Shown: positions 40,816 through 59,196 of the stretch, in pieces
Numbering within the stretch: the first letter of the stretch is position 1
Layout of the letters: every line of letters starts with the position of its first letter
IMG/VR virus record: IMGVR_UViG_3300029552_000001
Length of the DNA stretch: 64,000 bases
Source: a virus
Strand: one strand, 5' to 3'
Position numbers and translations under genes: made by a program
The notes under the pieces: model-generated
The model's input: the letters and a program-made list of their open reading frames with translations, nothing else
The model's database searches: none
What the model was told of the DNA's origin: nothing

Positions 40816-40835
40816 ATGTTTAAGAAAACACCATG

Positions 40836-40907
40836 TACCCCAATCCGGAATCGAACCGAAATTTCATCGTTAGGACCGACGTGTTCTATCCATTGAACTA
40901 TTAGGGC
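40836..40907 (-). tRNA. tRNA-Arg (anticodon CCU), 72 nt, no encoded CCA
   Basis: Hand-folded cloverleaf: GCCCUAA-UA-GUUC(AAUGGAUA)GAAC-A-CGUCG(GUCCUAA)CGAUG-AAAU-UUCGG(UUCGAUU)CCGGA-UUGGGGU-A. The D-loop has GG and the T-loop is UUCGAUU. G32 is unusual. Confidence 0.7.
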
Positions 40908-54019: not shown

Positions 54020-54558
54020 TTATGATGGAAGAGGATAAGGATATCAAGAAAGAGATCAGGGATTATCTTAAAGAAGAGGCGGATACCCATATAAGGCATT
54101 GGATAGCCATAAAACGTGAGAGCAAGCGTCTGTATAGCGATATTGAGGATAGGACTAAGAAGATAGCCCTTAAATCATCTTCGTTGATAAAAGAGGAGGA
54201 TTTTGTCGTTCTTCATGAGATGACCCATAAGATACAGATGTTGAATATAGAGGCTGTAAAAGTCAATTCTAGGTTGATGTTCATAATCCAGTTGGCTACC
54301 AGCTTCGGTATGGATCTGGATTTAGATACGACATATGCGTCCACCGCCAAGAGCATTATAGAAGACAGAACGTCTGGATTCGTGTTTTATGATGATAAGG
54401 AACGTCTGAGATATGCTGACAAGGAGCTTGAGGATATGTTCCATGACATGAGCGTGACGGAAGTAAGTAAGATCGGGGTTGTTCAGTCTTATGAGCTTCT
54501 TATGAAACAGTATAACGAGTTTAAGGACATAATCAAAAATAATATTAATTCCATATAA
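54016..54558 (+). CDS. hypothetical protein (180 aa)
   Basis: ORF track. Confidence 0.55.
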   Translation: MIMMEEDKDIKKEIRDYLKEEADTHIRHWIAIKRESKRLYSDIEDRTKKIALKSSSLIKEEDFVVLHEMTHKIQMLNIEAVKVNSRLMFIIQLATSFGMDLDLDTTYASTAKSIIEDRTSGFVFYDDKERLRYADKELEDMFHDMSVTEVSKIGVVQSYELLMKQYNEFKDIIKNNINSI

Positions 54559-54569
54559 TTTCATTATAG

Positions 54570-54815
54570 GGTTTTAATATATCTATAAGGATCTGATTAT
54601 TAGCCTAAGTCTTGAAACAGAGGCTACGTTATTGGAGAATATATAGTTACCTACGGATGTTTATCCAAGTCTGTAGCTCTAAGGTAGGTGATTAAACAGG
54701 GATTGTATTTGGGTTTCGGTGTTGCCTGTACAAAACCTTCAATAACATTGGCGATGGGTACTAACAGGGTTTTTACCCTGACTTATGTTGAATAAACATT
54801 TTATTAAATTATTTA
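54570..54815 (+). ncRNA. candidate omega-RNA (HEARO-type guide RNA scaffold) of IscB
   Basis: Its position immediately 5' of iscB is as in known IscB loci. Stems seen: TAGCCT/AGGCTA, ACCTAC/GTAGGT, GGTTT/AAACC and CAGGGT-tttt-ACCCTG. The ends are not determined. Confidence 0.5.
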
Positions 54816-54821
54816 TTGTAA

Positions 54822-56042
54822 ATGGTTTATGTACAGGACATAGATGGTAAACCGATGATGCCTACGACAAGGCATGGTAAGGTTAGGAGGTTGCTTAAGG
54901 CAAATAAAGCAACCGTAGTGAATCTTTGTCCGTTTACGATTCAGTTAACTTACAAATCAACCGATCATAAACAGCCGGTTACTCTGGGCATTGATGCAGG
55001 AGCTAAACATATCGGTTTTTCTGCAACAACTGAAAAAGAAGAGTTATTTGCTTGTGAAACAATCTTAAGAACAGATATCGTAGATTTACTTTCAACGAGA
55101 TCTCAAAACAGAAGGACAAGAAGATCAAGGCTCAGATATAGGAAGCCTAAATTTAACAACAGAGTTTTCTCTAAAAAGAAAGGCTGGGTAGCCCCTTCTG
55201 TAAAACAAAGAATTGATTCCCATTTAAACGAAGTGAATGAAATTCATAAAATCCTTCCGATTACTAAAATAGTAATTGAGGCCGCTCAGTTCGATACTCA
55301 TAAAATGAAAAATCCTAATATTTCAGGAATTGATTATCAAAACGGAGAACAACTTGGATTTTGGAATGTCAGAGAGTACGTTTTGTTCAGAGACGGACAT
55401 AAATGTAGTTATTGTAAAGGGAAATCAAAAGATCTGATCCTGAATATTCATCATATCGAGTCTCGAAAAACAGGAGGTGATTCCCCTTCCAATCTCATTA
55501 CCTTGTGTGAAACTTGTCATAAGGAATATCACAAAGGCAATATTGATTTAAAGGTAAGGCGAGGCAAGTCGCTTTGCGGCGCAGCCATAATGGGAATCAT
55601 GAAATGAAGATTATACGATGAGTTGAAGTCAAGATATTCAAACGTTTCAATGACGTTCGGTTACATTACAAAATATAATCGGATTAAATACGGAATAGAA
55701 AAATCACATACATCCGATGCGTTTGTAATTTCTAAGAACTTCAATGCGAAACGAATTGAGTATCAATACTTGAAACGTTTAGTTCGTAGGCATAACAGGC
55801 AAATACATAAAATGAAAATTTTAAAAGGAGGGAAGAAGAAAAATAATCAAGCTCCTTTTGAGGTTTTCGGATTTAGATTGTTTGATAAAGTATTGTATAA
55901 CAATGAAATAAATTTTATTTATGGAAGAAGAAAATCGGGAAATTTCAATATCAGGGATTTCAATGGAGAAAATCCAAAGGATGTTTCATACAAAAAGCTT
56001 AAACTCATTAGAGGAAAGAGGCATCCGATTATATTAAAGTAA
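54822..56042 (+). CDS. iscB: IscB RNA-guided nuclease (RuvC + HNH), 406 codons with one in-frame TGA at 55605-55607 (track ORFs 54822..55607 and 55623..56042 share a frame)
   Basis: The PLMP-type N-terminus is GKPMMPTTRHGKVRRLL and RuvC-I is LGIDAGAKHIGFS. The Arg-rich bridge is RRTRRSRLRYRKP and RuvC-II is IVIEAAQFD. HNH is CSYCKG..IHHIESRKTGGDSPSNLITLCETCHKEYH and RuvC-III is SHTSDAF. The C-terminal segment is GFRLFDKV..GRRKSGNF. Confidence 0.85.
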
Positions 56043-56089
56043 ATAAATGTATATAAACATGTTTAATATATTTTTAAATATGAAAGCCA

Positions 56090-56410
56090 ATGCCACAGGG
56101 AAGACGAAAGCCGACGAGTAAGGACGTCGATCGGGTAAACGATAATCTTGAGGTCATATCCAAGGCCGTGGATGACGCCAAGACGTATATCGCCAAGCAT
56201 CCATGGGATAAGGAGAAGCCTGAGGATATGGCTAGGGCGTTCGATTTCATATCCAAGCTGATCGATAAGATCAACGTATGGAATGACTCGTATATGGAGA
56301 AGAGTGGAATCATGGATGTATACAGGAGTGTCAGCAATGTCCAGAAGAAGGAACGTAAGGGACAGGTTTCCGGTGGTATAGAATCCGTATTAAAAAATAT
56401 GCGATCATGA
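56090..56410 (+). CDS. hypothetical protein; positional candidate for small terminase subunit
   Basis: 106 aa with a basic N-terminus. Its stop overlaps the TerL ATG (ATGA). Confidence 0.5.
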   Translation: MPQGRRKPTSKDVDRVNDNLEVISKAVDDAKTYIAKHPWDKEKPEDMARAFDFISKLIDKINVWNDSYMEKSGIMDVYRSVSNVQKKERKGQVSGGIESVLKNMRS

Positions 56411-59196
56411 GTTTAAGCACGAGTCCAGAATTTTATGTAAACATGAAGAATCCCCCTATATGGAACGATCTGTTCGGATGGGAGGATCAGGATGATGATG
56501 TTAAGCAGTTCTTCACGGAGGAGGCTTATAAGGTCAAGAACGGGGTGACTATCAACGGTACGTTCATCCCGCCATGGCTTTATTGGCATGTTAATTTCTT
56601 TCCCGTATTTCAAGACCTTCCAAATGGAGAGCGTGTTCCGGCTATCAGCCGGTTACGTGATAATGAATGGTTTTTCGCCGAGATGTACCAACGTGCCCGT
56701 CAGGAGAAGAAAGGGCTGGGGATGTTCGGTACCCGTCGTTTTGGGAAGGCCCTTCTGGACTCGGAGCTGATATATACTCCTTATGGACCTAAGAAGATAG
56801 GGTTCGCTGATATCGGTGATATCATATATGGCGATGATGGTAAGCTTACGACTGTAGTAGGCGTATATCCTCAAGGGTTCGTTGATATGTATAAGGTTAC
56901 GTTTGAGGACGGGCGCAGTATAGTATGTTGCGGTCAACATCAGTGGAAGGTTAAATATCATGGTGATTATAAAGTCATGAGCACTATGGGTATCATCCAC
57001 TCTGACTTCCAGAAGATGACTATAGACATAGGGGAGGCCGTGGATTTCCCCGAGCGGCGGTGGCTGATGTCGCCCCAGCTCCTTGGGTCTCTGACCGCCT
57101 CTTTCCTTTGTGGATCTACCGACAGGATCTTCGAGTTAAGCAATAAGGAGATGGATGATATTATTTATTCATCCAAAAAACAGAAGGAGTTGTTTATAAG
57201 CTCATTCATGAAGATATCTTGCGGTATAAGTACCGGTGATGATTGTTTTAAGGTCGTTTACAAAAGTGAGTATATTATATCCTTCGTAAGAAGAATATTC
57301 TGGTCTATGGGATATTATTGCGTCATGGATGGTGATGATATGTATATATCCAAGACTCATAACAGGCTTAGGATATCCGATATAGATTATTACGGGAAGT
57401 ATAAGGCTACTTGTATTGAGGTCGATAATAAGTCCCATCAGTTCCTTGCCACTAATTTTGTCGTATCCCATAATACGACTATCATGTCATCACTTCTCCA
57501 GATGAACGCTACCATGACGATCGGGCTTAGTCATTCCGTGGTAGGTTTCAGCGATAGCGATTTATCTAATATAGGTGAGTATTGTGAGTATGGTCTTGAT
57601 CATGTGCATCCTTTTTTCAGGATTAACAGGACCAAGACCGATTGGAGTTCTGGTGTCACCTTAGGCAAGCGTATGTCCAACGGGGTTCGTGATGTTCATG
57701 CCATAATATCCATAGCCAACATCAACATGGGTAGGAAGACATCCACACAGAAGACTGCCGGTCTGACCCCCGCCACGGCTATTTTCGACGAGGTAGGTAA
57801 GGGACCTATCAAGAAGCCGTACACTGCCGCCATGCCGTCATACGACACTCCTTACGGCTGGCGTCTCAGTCCGATCTTGGCTGGTACCGGTGGTGAGGTG
57901 GAACTATCCAAGGACGCTCAGGAGATGTTCTCTGATCCTGATACATACAATCTTCTGGTCATGGACTGGGATATTTTAAATCGGAGAGCCATGAAAGGGA
58001 AAACATGGAAAGAACGGAAATGGGCGATGTTTGTTCCTGGTCAGATGGCTAACTCCGGTGTCAAGAGAACTATAGGTCTGGGTGATTATTTGGGGAAACC
58101 TGATGATAAGAAGCTTAATAAGATCAAGATTGACGCCACGGATTTCGAGGCTAGTACCAATAAGCTTAACGAGGAACGGAAGAAGCTATCTACGAAAGAT
58201 AGGGTAGCTTATACCTCTCATACCATGTTCTATCCATTTACGATTGACGACTGTTTTTTAAGCTCATCCCAGAACCTATTTCCGGTCGAGTACGCTATCA
58301 AGCATAAGAATGATCTTCTTGAGTCGGGGCAATATAGCGGCATGCTGTGTGATGTTTTCCTTGAATCGGGGAATAAACTTGGTACTACTAAATCGAATAA
58401 GCAATTGGCTGGTTTTCCGTTTAGCGGTGGTGTTATTGACGCTCCTGTCCAGATATTTGAGATGCCTCAATCCAATAGGTTTGATGACTTTATATATGTG
58501 AGTGGTAGCGACCCCTACAAACAGGCTAAGTCGGATACGCCCTCATTAGGTGCTTTTTATGTATTCAAGAGACGTGTTGGTATTCGAGATCCTTATGCCT
58601 ATAGAATAGTTGCCTCTTACGTATCTCGTCCATCATCCATAGATCAGTTTTGCCGTACGTGTGAGGTGCTTCAGAAGGGATATGGGGCTATATGTCTTAT
58701 GGAGAACGCTGACCAGATGTATGAGCAGTACCTCAACCGGAAGAGTGGTATGCCCGCTTCTTTCTTCCTGTTCGCTGGTGAGGCTATAGCCAATAAGTAC
58801 GTGAAGGCCGGCTCCCGGCAGAACAGCAAGCTGGGGCTATACCCTACCCCCGGCAACCAGAACCTGCTCTTCTCCTGCGTGGTGGATTACTGCTGGCAGG
58901 ATTTCGTTATCGGTTATGATGATCAGACTGGTCTTGATATAACTGTCAAGGGTATTGAGCTGATCGATGATATAGCCCTACTGGATGAGATAATACAGTA
59001 TAAGCCCGGATTGAACGTCGATAGGATAATAGCGTTCGGGCATGCGTTGGTTCTCGCCAGATATTTTGACGATAACAATTACATGCCTAAATCGAAGATC
59101 GAGGAGATGAATAATGCCCGCAAGGAAGACGCTTATAAACACCATGAGGTATATGCATCTGCATTTGGATCGGTATCTATAGGAGCTTTTAGGTAA
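56407..59196 (+). CDS. terL: terminase large subunit, interrupted by an intein (929-aa precursor, ~687-aa spliced)
   Basis: Removing residues 115-356 restores Walker A GTRRFGK|TTIMSS. Walker B-like AIFDEVGK and the nuclease region VSGSDPY are present. It is followed by the portal gene. Confidence 0.85.
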   Translation: MSLSTSPEFYVNMKNPPIWNDLFGWEDQDDDVKQFFTEEAYKVKNGVTINGTFIPPWLYWHVNFFPVFQDLPNGERVPAISRLRDNEWFFAEMYQRARQEKKGLGMFGTRRFGKALLDSELIYTPYGPKKIGFADIGDIIYGDDGKLTTVVGVYPQGFVDMYKVTFEDGRSIVCCGQHQWKVKYHGDYKVMSTMGIIHSDFQKMTIDIGEAVDFPERRWLMSPQLLGSLTASFLCGSTDRIFELSNKEMDDIIYSSKKQKELFISSFMKISCGISTGDDCFKVVYKSEYIISFVRRIFWSMGYYCVMDGDDMYISKTHNRLRISDIDYYGKYKATCIEVDNKSHQFLATNFVVSHNTTIMSSLLQMNATMTIGLSHSVVGFSDSDLSNIGEYCEYGLDHVHPFFRINRTKTDWSSGVTLGKRMSNGVRDVHAIISIANINMGRKTSTQKTAGLTPATAIFDEVGKGPIKKPYTAAMPSYDTPYGWRLSPILAGTGGEVELSKDAQEMFSDPDTYNLLVMDWDILNRRAMKGKTWKERKWAMFVPGQMANSGVKRTIGLGDYLGKPDDKKLNKIKIDATDFEASTNKLNEERKKLSTKDRVAYTSHTMFYPFTIDDCFLSSSQNLFPVEYAIKHKNDLLESGQYSGMLCDVFLESGNKLGTTKSNKQLAGFPFSGGVIDAPVQIFEMPQSNRFDDFIYVSGSDPYKQAKSDTPSLGAFYVFKRRVGIRDPYAYRIVASYVSRPSSIDQFCRTCEVLQKGYGAICLMENADQMYEQYLNRKSGMPASFFLFAGEAIANKYVKAGSRQNSKLGLYPTPGNQNLLFSCVVDYCWQDFVIGYDDQTGLDITVKGIELIDDIALLDEIIQYKPGLNVDRIIAFGHALVLARYFDDNNYMPKSKIEEMNNARKEDAYKHHEVYASAFGSVSIGAFR
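56749..57474 (+). mobile_element. intein (242 aa) in the TerL P-loop; Ala1, class-3-like
   Basis: Block A is ALLDSELIYTPYG and block B is CCGQHQW. Block F is KATCIEVDNKSHQF and block G is FVVSHN followed by +1 Thr. The A115 codon is 56749-56751 and the N356 codon is 57472-57474. Confidence 0.8.

Follow-up and report, generated by a model that had tools for sequence, protein, structure and literature searches.

Walker A motif of the large terminase subunit is split by an intein

The large terminase subunit (TerL) encoded in a 64,000-nucleotide stretch of viral DNA (IMG/VR record IMGVR_UViG_3300029552_000001, hereafter the window) contains a 242-residue insert which, judged by its sequence and its predicted fold, is an intein. 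It is very probably a splicing-competent intein of the rarer class 3, with splicing predicted by homology. The insert occupies positions 56749..57474 (+), from Ala1 to Asn242, corresponding to codons 115-356 of the TerL open reading frame (ORF). It interrupts in frame the Walker A sequence GTRRFGK|T between Lys and Thr (the bar marks the splice junction), with GTRRFGK and TTIMSS as its flanks. Translation of this segment gives exactly the 242-residue peptide ALLDSELIY...FVVSHN that an earlier reading of the sequence alone had put forward, together with all the motifs quoted there, and excision restores GTRRFGKT, a P-loop of the form GxxxxGKT.

The precursor ORF (56407..59196, +) encodes 929 residues plus the stop and carries this one intein. 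The N-extein (56407..56748, +) has 114 residues and ends with the Walker A part GTRRFGK, whereas the C-extein (57475..59193, +) has 573 residues and starts with the Walker A Thr; the mature TerL after predicted splicing would have 687 residues, not 929. Among the PHROG profiles, phrog_6681 (terminase large subunit) matches the 929-residue ORF in two stretches with an E-value of 4.4e-70. A tblastn search with the ORF retrieved the annotated TerL of phage csAssE-Sib at 48.5% identity, those of the Cellulophaga phages phi17:2 and phi4:1 at 35% and of the Leptolyngbya phage Lbo-JY46 at 34%, as well as the annotated TerL of many crAss-like phages. In addition, TerL is followed by an ORF of 920 residues where csAssE-Sib has its annotated portal gene. 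PHROG profiles, annotated homologs and synteny are the basis of the TerL assignment, because a search of the spliced product against PDB sequences and Pfam found no TerL match; Pfam gave only a weak AAA_14 match (E=0.13) on the restored P-loop of the in-silico spliced protein. About 105 residues downstream of the restored Walker A in the spliced protein lies the sequence IFDEVG (57781..57798, +), which we infer to be the Walker B motif from its hhhhDE pattern. Its Asp461 and Glu462 (precursor numbering) are invariant in a four-way TerL alignment.

The same four-way alignment defines the insertion point. The TerL proteins of phi17:2 (ATRRLFK|STGLAS) and Lbo-JY46 (GARRLAK|TQFIAS) run without a break across the junction, and their gap coincides exactly with residues 115-356 of the window protein, whereas in the TerL of the window and in that of csAssE-Sib ~241-242 additional residues separate the Lys from the Thr/Ser at exactly this point. 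The RR..K pattern before the junction is invariant in the four orthologs. In synthetic form, the intein-less TerL target across the junction would read ...CGTCGTTTTGGGAAG|ACGACTATCATG.... The comparison with intein-less orthologs thus bears out the proposal that an intein splits the P-loop between Lys and Thr. Moreover, distant homologs of the whole intein are found as GK|A...HN|T in the P-loops of other ATPases, in agreement with the "classic" P-loop insertion site GK|T described by Kelley et al. (PMC5050341). Most class-3 inteins were likewise reported to reside in ATPase P-loops, including those of terminases (Tori et al., PMC2807308).

The phage is ~150 kb in size, with related contigs of 140-160 kb, and its TerL groups with that of phi17:2, which fits the Epsilon group of crAss-like gut phages (Yutin et al. 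2021, PMC7886860). The identical 929-residue protein is found on 202 contigs of the protein collection; as the search with the full ORF was filled with ~100%-identical copies, representatives of 50%-identity clusters were searched instead for diversity.

Sequence and fold of the insert

Searched alone against 1.84 billion cluster representatives (E<=1e-3), the insert matched 7,867 proteins. Its splicing blocks A, B, F and G follow each other in order, and His64, His241-Asn242 and Thr+1 are all present. Against PDB sequences, phmmer revealed the intein gp41-1 (6riz, E=1.7e-9; 6qaz, E=1.8e-7), the class-3 DnaB1 intein of Mycobacterium smegmatis (Msm DnaBi1; 6bs8, E=6.1e-7) and the DnaB1 intein of M. 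chimaera (Mch DnaB1; 6rix and 6riy, E=2-4e-6). The alignment to 6bs8 spans the N-terminal region (QHQW against QHQW) and blocks F and G (katCIEVDN against vrCVEVDN, and vvSHN against vpTHN). In this alignment, His64 and Trp66 correspond to His65 and Trp67 of 6bs8, Cys222 to Cys118 at position F:4, and Ser240-His241-Asn242 to Thr137-His138-Asn139, which confirms the block assignments made in the sequence-only reading. The exact ortholog gap, the 7,867 matches and the matches to solved inteins (E=1.7e-9 to 4e-6) together show that the pattern did not arise by chance. The insert is also matched by PHROG families whose members include TerL, DnaB-loader and primase proteins with inteins.

We modeled the intein with AlphaFold2 on an alignment of 23 family members (A3), which gave a mean predicted local distance difference test score (pLDDT) of 95.5 and a predicted template modeling score (pTM) of 0.91. 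Structural similarity search of the model against the PDB using Foldseek returned 57 matches at E<=1e-3, the 50 best of which are inteins, Hedgehog autoprocessing domains or bacterial intein-like (BIL) domains. The best fold matches are PI-SceI (template modeling score normalized to the query, TMq, 0.73), the Tli and Pho VMA inteins, the class-3 DnaB1 inteins (score normalized to the target, TMt, ~0.8) and gp41-1; PI-SceI, the class-3 DnaB1 inteins and gp41-1 all match at a probability of 1.00.

A W-C-S variant of the class-3 signature

Class-3 inteins are marked by the lack of an N-terminal nucleophile, together with Trp at B:12, Cys at F:4 and Thr at G:5 (the WCT triplet; PMC2807308; PMC5050341). 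At the corresponding positions, the insert carries Ala1, CCGQHQW, KATCIEV and VVSHN|T. The block A region ALLDSELIYTPYG (56749..56787, +) starts with Ala, so that no nucleophile is available at the N-terminus. Block B, GRSIVCCGQHQWKV (56911..56952, +), contains Cys61 at B:7, His64 at B:10 and Trp66 at B:12, matching the QHQW of 6bs8. Block F, KATCIEVDNKSHQFLA (57403..57450, +), provides Cys222 at F:4, the predicted initiating nucleophile, and block G, NFVVSHN plus Thr+1 (57454..57477, +), contains Ser240 at G:5, His241 at G:6 and Asn242 at G:7. A Thr at +1 and an insertion at GK|T are both typical for class 3, in which Ser or Thr (rarely Cys) at +1 and frequent P-loop insertion have been described (PMC2807308).

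These positions were tallied in the 150 closest of the 7,867 representatives after re-alignment. The -1/1 junction is K|A in 113 of the 140 scored sequences, followed by K|D (6), K|C (4) and K|S (4). The H-x-W pattern at B:10/B:12 appears in 207/216 N-terminal blocks, and F:4 is Cys in all 206 C-terminal blocks. Block G reads T-H-N followed by Thr (132), Ser (60) or Cys (7) in 199 of 206 blocks, with Thr at G:5 in 203. In the alignment of the 23-sequence family, His64, Trp66, Cys222, His241 and Asn242 are invariant, and the orthologous inteins of csAssE-Sib and of eight other TerL proteins (39-53% identical) all end in VTHN|T/S. The class-3-like signature suspected from the sequence alone is therefore common to the closest relatives.

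Further residues around block F agree with an intein known to splice by this route. Ile223, Asp226, His230 and Phe232 are spaced from Cys222 as Ile321, Asp324, His328 and Phe330 are in the MP-Be DnaB intein, in which F:4 Cys is absolutely required, splicing was lost in the I321A and F330A mutants, and the D324A mutant spliced less (PMC2807308).

Several points weigh against this assignment. G:5 is Ser and not the signature Thr, a feature found in only 2/206 relative blocks, one of which belongs to the 97%-identical twin of the window. Grafting of the WCT triplet onto a class-1 intein gave no class-3 splicing (PMC7664689), and because this graft failed, the triplet alone is no proof of mechanism. 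Both splicing and the branched intermediate are predictions by sequence comparison. Curated profiles also fall short: the comparison with Pfam suggested by the sequence-only reading yielded for the insert only Hom_end_hint at 19.8 bits, below the cut-off of 32.1, and the NCBIfam models gave no match on the window sequence. Among the 23 relatives, 12/23 do match Hom_end_hint and 7/23 Intein_splicing (E<=0.1), with best E-values of 3.8e-6 and 5.8e-8, respectively; the sub-threshold scores reflect the sensitivity of the models and are not a biological criterion.

As for the Ser, mutants of the G:5 Thr in MP-Be DnaB were mildly affected in a temperature-dependent manner and still spliced at 15 °C (PMC2807308). 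In the structures of Mch DnaB1, a Cys-His-Thr triad is completed by the hydroxyl of this Thr (PMC7664689); Ser240 would retain the hydroxyl and with it the partner of the block B His. Because Ser keeps the hydroxyl and the Thr mutants still splice at 15 °C, the window intein is read as a W-C-S variant within the class-3 lineage, placed there by homology and not by the literal triplet.

A Cys60-Cys61 pair (56926-56931) occupies B:6-B:7 just before the block B His and is invariant in the 78 alleles described below. Cys is present at B:7 in 100/216 relatives; class-1 inteins have Thr there, and Msm DnaBi1 has Asp. Lying close to the catalytic Cys222, the pair could permit disulfide control.

Population data and evolutionary history

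A search of IMG/VR retrieved 403 related stretches, of which the best 80 loci, at 98-100% protein identity, were examined. All 78 loci that are not truncated at a contig end contain the full 2,787-nt ORF; these 78 alleles comprise 76 distinct nucleotide sequences. Ala1, Cys60, Cys61, His64, Trp66, Cys222, Ser240, His241, Asn242 and Thr+1 are invariant in 78/78 alleles. The ratio of nonsynonymous to synonymous substitution rates (dN/dS), calculated by the Nei-Gojobori method (NG86) on 600 random pairs of 77 distinct alleles, is 0.022 for both exteins and 0.064 for the whole intein. Within the intein, it is 0.047 for the N-terminal part, 0.096 for the middle domain and 0.020 for the C-terminal part with blocks F and G. 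Synonymous divergence is similar, with a dS of 0.28 for the intein and 0.35 for the exteins. From these dN/dS and dS values, strong purifying selection acts on the intein, its putative endonuclease remnant included, and intein and host gene have a common history.

No intein-free allele was found among the 80 best related loci. A degenerate 33-nt pattern of the empty junction (GTRRFGKTTIM) was likewise absent from IMG/VR and from 241 million JGI metagenome records, whereas the matched pattern of the occupied junction (GTRRFGKALLD) was present in at least 120 contigs of IMG/VR. Across divergent orthologs, the intein identity of 35-46% tracks the extein identity of 39-53%. Altogether, the invariant alleles, similar dS, lack of an empty allele and tracking identities speak for an intein that is old, fixed and transmitted vertically rather than by active homing. 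A recent horizontal acquisition was also considered and found unsupported, given the similar dS and the tracking of identities; the GC content, compared as well, is 41.6% for the intein, 46-47% for the exteins and 39.3% for the window.

Three orthologs, P0122 (1317 residues), P0124 (1086 residues) and P0140 (1062 residues), have the same P-loop intein and exteins that exceed the 687 residues of the window by 130-390 residues. They probably hold further inteins or insertions at other TerL sites.

The middle domain as a putative LAGLIDADG remnant

Between the N-terminal splicing region and block F, residues 79-205 (56983..57363, +) form a middle domain of ~127 residues, a putative remnant of a LAGLIDADG half-domain. 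The predicted structure has helices at residues 109-120, 132-139 and 143-158, followed by a single β-α-β-β unit. The segment LLGSLTASFLCGSTD (residues 111-125; 57079..57123, +), a helix plus a loop, may by its position only be what is left of the first LAGLIDADG helix, whereas FISSFMKISCGIS (residues 149-161; 57193..57231, +) appears to be a degenerate second LAGLIDADG motif. Two half-domains, each of the order α-β-β-α-β-β-α, are not present in the model, which contains about one.

A profile of the middle domain built from 22 relatives matched PI-PfuI (E=0.0031), PI-SceI (E=0.012) and PI-PkoII (E=0.13) among PDB sequences, and all three alignments cover the second LAGLIDADG motif and the following "SLG" strand. 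In the weak hidden Markov model (HMM) alignment to PI-SceI (E=0.012), the profile sequence lldgllksskgiv is paired with FLAGLIDSDGYV, and the window residues FMKIS lie opposite LIDSD of PI-SceI. At this level of similarity, Met and Ile stand at the positions of the two Asp residues of LIDSDG. An acidic pair (TGDD; TG[DEY][DE] in the TerL clade) is conserved 4-5 residues downstream, after the motif helix. Three of the 23 relatives reach Pfam Hom_end or LAGLIDADG_3 (E<=0.1); the window sequence itself does not. In structure, superposition of the whole-intein model onto PI-SceI covers ~70 more residues than onto mini-inteins (TMq 0.73 against 0.44).

This assignment has its own weaknesses. The profile matches on which it leans have weak E-values (0.003-0.012). 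Foldseek with the isolated domain gave no significant fold match, the best E-value being 0.13; intein endonucleases appeared at E=0.6-1, with root-mean-square deviations of 3-5 Å over 66-78 columns. The decayed LAGLIDADG endonuclease proposed from the sequence alone is thus partly supported, by the weak profile matches to PI-PfuI and PI-SceI and by the three relatives, but not by a significant fold match of the isolated domain. With moderate confidence, a decayed LAGLIDADG half-domain is the best available reading of sequence and model. The domain has probably lost its nuclease activity, and most likely it has been kept by selection because it is needed for folding.

If the domain were instead still active in homing, for example as a LAGLIDADG endonuclease with a single motif that works as a dimer, the intein would be mobile now. 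Its purifying selection (dN/dS 0.096), the acidic pair conserved in the TerL clade, the matches of relatives to Hom_end and LAGLIDADG_3, and the Asp retained in the GL(I/F)xxD motif of some distant relatives all agree with such an activity. However, only about one half-domain is present, Met and Ile replace the catalytic Asp residues of PI-SceI in the HMM alignment, intein-free target alleles were not found, and the tracking divergence and similar dS of intein and exteins are as expected from vertical descent and not from homing. We consider an active endonuclease improbable and retain the decayed half-domain. Antisense or out-of-frame homing endonucleases have been described for some actinophage inteins. 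Such a gene within the present intein was considered and rejected, the minus-strand ORFs at 56653-57000 and 57202-57471 having no Pfam or PHROG match.

Proposed splicing mechanism

By homology, we propose a class-3 pathway for the window intein. Because residue 1 is Ala, Cys222 of block F would attack the Lys(-1)-Ala1 bond to form a branched thioester intermediate. The block B His64, which would pack on Trp66 and form a hydrogen bond with the Ser240 hydroxyl (Thr in relatives), would assist Cys222. The N-extein would then be transferred to the hydroxyl of Thr+1, Asn242 would cyclize with the help of His241 to release the intein, and an O-to-N shift would create the peptide bond that completes GTRRFGKT.

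As the P-loop is not intact before splicing, a mature packaging ATPase therefore exists only after splicing. The earlier suggestion that splicing gates the packaging ATPase holds in this trivial sense of a structural necessity, whereas regulated splicing is not indicated. It is unlikely that the half-LAGLIDADG domain or the Cys-Cys pair at B:6-B:7 has acquired a role that makes TerL maturation and packaging conditional. Speculatively, such roles might include DNA or partner binding, or a redox- or temperature-sensitive switch comparable to that of Msm DnaBi1 (PMC6195587).

Alternatively, the intein might splice as a class-2, KlbA-like intein, in which the hydroxyl of Thr+1 attacks the N-terminal junction directly and Cys222 has a structural or assisting role. 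Class-2 KlbA inteins also start with Ala1 (PMC2807308), the failed graft shows that the WCT triplet is insufficient for class-3 splicing in a class-1 intein (PMC7664689), and the Ser at G:5 departs from the triplet. By contrast, class-2 inteins have Asp at F:4, Cys at +1 and no Trp at B:12, whereas the window intein has Cys, Thr and Trp at these positions; its closest relatives, solved and unsolved, are of class 3, and the F:4 Cys is indispensable in MP-Be DnaB (PMC2807308). A class-2 route is accordingly quite improbable, and the class-3 pathway is preferred. Least probable of all, a dead or domesticated intein, that is, a permanent non-splicing insertion with which TerL works or which makes it a pseudogene, would agree with the decayed endonuclease, the fixed intein without empty alleles found and the curated profiles below threshold, but hardly with catalytic residues that are all invariant in 78 alleles despite a dS of ~0.3 and across 35-46%-identical orthologs, with a dN/dS of blocks F and G as low as that of the exteins, with P-loop Lys and Thr 242 residues apart in the unspliced protein, or with strong purifying selection on TerL in a very abundant phage.

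Neighboring genes and an upstream IscB element

A 106-residue ORF (56090-56410, +) precedes TerL and overlaps its start by 4 nt. It has no Pfam match, and its position corresponds to a csAssE-Sib gene annotated as "putative terminase small subunit". Just upstream of this ORF lies an IscB/omega-RNA (OMEGA, HEARO) element (54528-56079, +), composed of a HEARO RNA (54544-54765, +; Rfam HEARO, 92 bits) followed by IscB-like ORFs (54822-55607 and 55623-56042, +) with RRXRR (E=1.2e-61) and HNH domains. Of the 78 related IMG/VR loci that gave a blastn match, 70 lack the ~1.55-kb element and have contiguous flanks; seven carry it in colinear arrangement (L012, L020, L024, L041, L054, L065 and one more), and in L078 it is rearranged. 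Since it is absent from 70/78 loci and present in others, the element is therefore a polymorphic mobile insertion.

The IscB-like ORF of the window is split by a single in-frame TGA (55605-55607). Six related copies (L012, L020, L041, L024, L054 and L065) have a Trp codon here (presumably TGG) and thus an uninterrupted ORF of 406 residues. The TGA is either a fresh nonsense mutation, which would make the ORF a pseudogene here, or a hint that TGA is read as Trp. The one tRNA gene, a tRNA-Arg(CCT) at 40835-40907 (-) found by ARAGORN and Rfam, is not a suppressor. The locus L078 (IMGVR_UViG_3300045988_075307) contains at ~625-2017 a divergent copy of the element, 70-74% identical and at another position upstream of TerL, which suggests independent insertions of IscB elements.

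Comparison with known inteins

The closest characterized relatives are the class-3 inteins Msm DnaBi1 (6bs8), Mch DnaB1 (6rix) and MP-Be DnaB. Together with the window intein, they have a non-nucleophilic residue 1, an insertion after the P-loop GK, QHQW in block B, the F:4 Cys within C(I/V)EVDN, a C-terminal His-Asn and Thr or Ser at +1. The window intein differs from them in Ser instead of Thr at G:5, in a B:7 Cys that follows another Cys instead of Asp or Ser, and in its host protein TerL. Where the window intein has its putative LAGLIDADG remnant of ~127 residues, a short linker is present in Msm DnaBi1 and a full endonuclease in MP-Be DnaB.

Among PDB sequences, the N-terminal splicing region is matched best by the intein gp41-1 (cyanophage-like; 6qaz and 6riz), with the lower E-value for the WCT-engineered form (1.7e-9, against 1.8e-7 for the wild type). 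This intein differs in being a naturally split mini-intein of class 1 (Cys1), and its residues at F:4 and B:12 are Asp and Phe, respectively. PI-SceI is the best superposition of the whole-intein model, and the middle-domain profile falls on the second-motif region of PI-SceI and PI-PfuI. However, these two have two half-domains, DNA-recognition regions and catalytic Asp residues, whereas the window intein has about one half-domain and non-acidic residues at the aligned positions.

In phages, the available parts of PMC5050341 and of a preprint (10.1101/2025.01.02.630785) describe inteins of mycobacteriophage and actinobacteriophage TerL that lie, like the present one, in the TerL ATPase domain. 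According to these parts, the site TerL1-a lies between the invariant Walker A Lys and Thr, the same position as that of the window intein; class-3 inteins are common in phage TerL, and those of mycobacteriophages are named at sites c, d and e. The actinophage inteins described there differ in residing in another TerL family (the window TerL being crAss-like, phrog_6681) and another host phylum, and most of them keep a full LAGLIDADG endonuclease. The same assemblage as that of the window phage was treated by Yutin et al. 2021 (PMC7886860). The accessible portion of that paper places Cellulophaga phi17:2 in the ~150-kb Epsilon group and reports that the TerL of Delta-group crAss-like phages typically has an intein; for Epsilon-group TerL, this portion gives no intein class or insertion site. 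The TerL of phi17:2, itself an Epsilon-group phage, has no intein in our alignment.

For one abundant ~150-kb phage of the human gut, the present analysis corrects the TerL annotation to a predicted mature protein of 687 residues. The range of class-3 inteins is widened from actinobacteria and the phages that infect them to crAss-like phages of the Epsilon group. Intein engineering might also make use of a natural W-C-S variant and of a compact class-3 intein of 242 residues with a folded half-endonuclease. The current understanding of inteins and of packaging is unchanged.

Class-3 inteins (PMC2807308), their occurrence in phage TerL and the GK|T site (PMC5050341), and inteins in crAss-like TerL (PMC7886860) are already published. 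Specific to the window intein, and nothing beyond that, are its Epsilon-type crAss-like host, the W-C-S triplet, the Cys-Cys pair at B:6-B:7 and the compact half-LAGLIDADG remnant maintained by selection.

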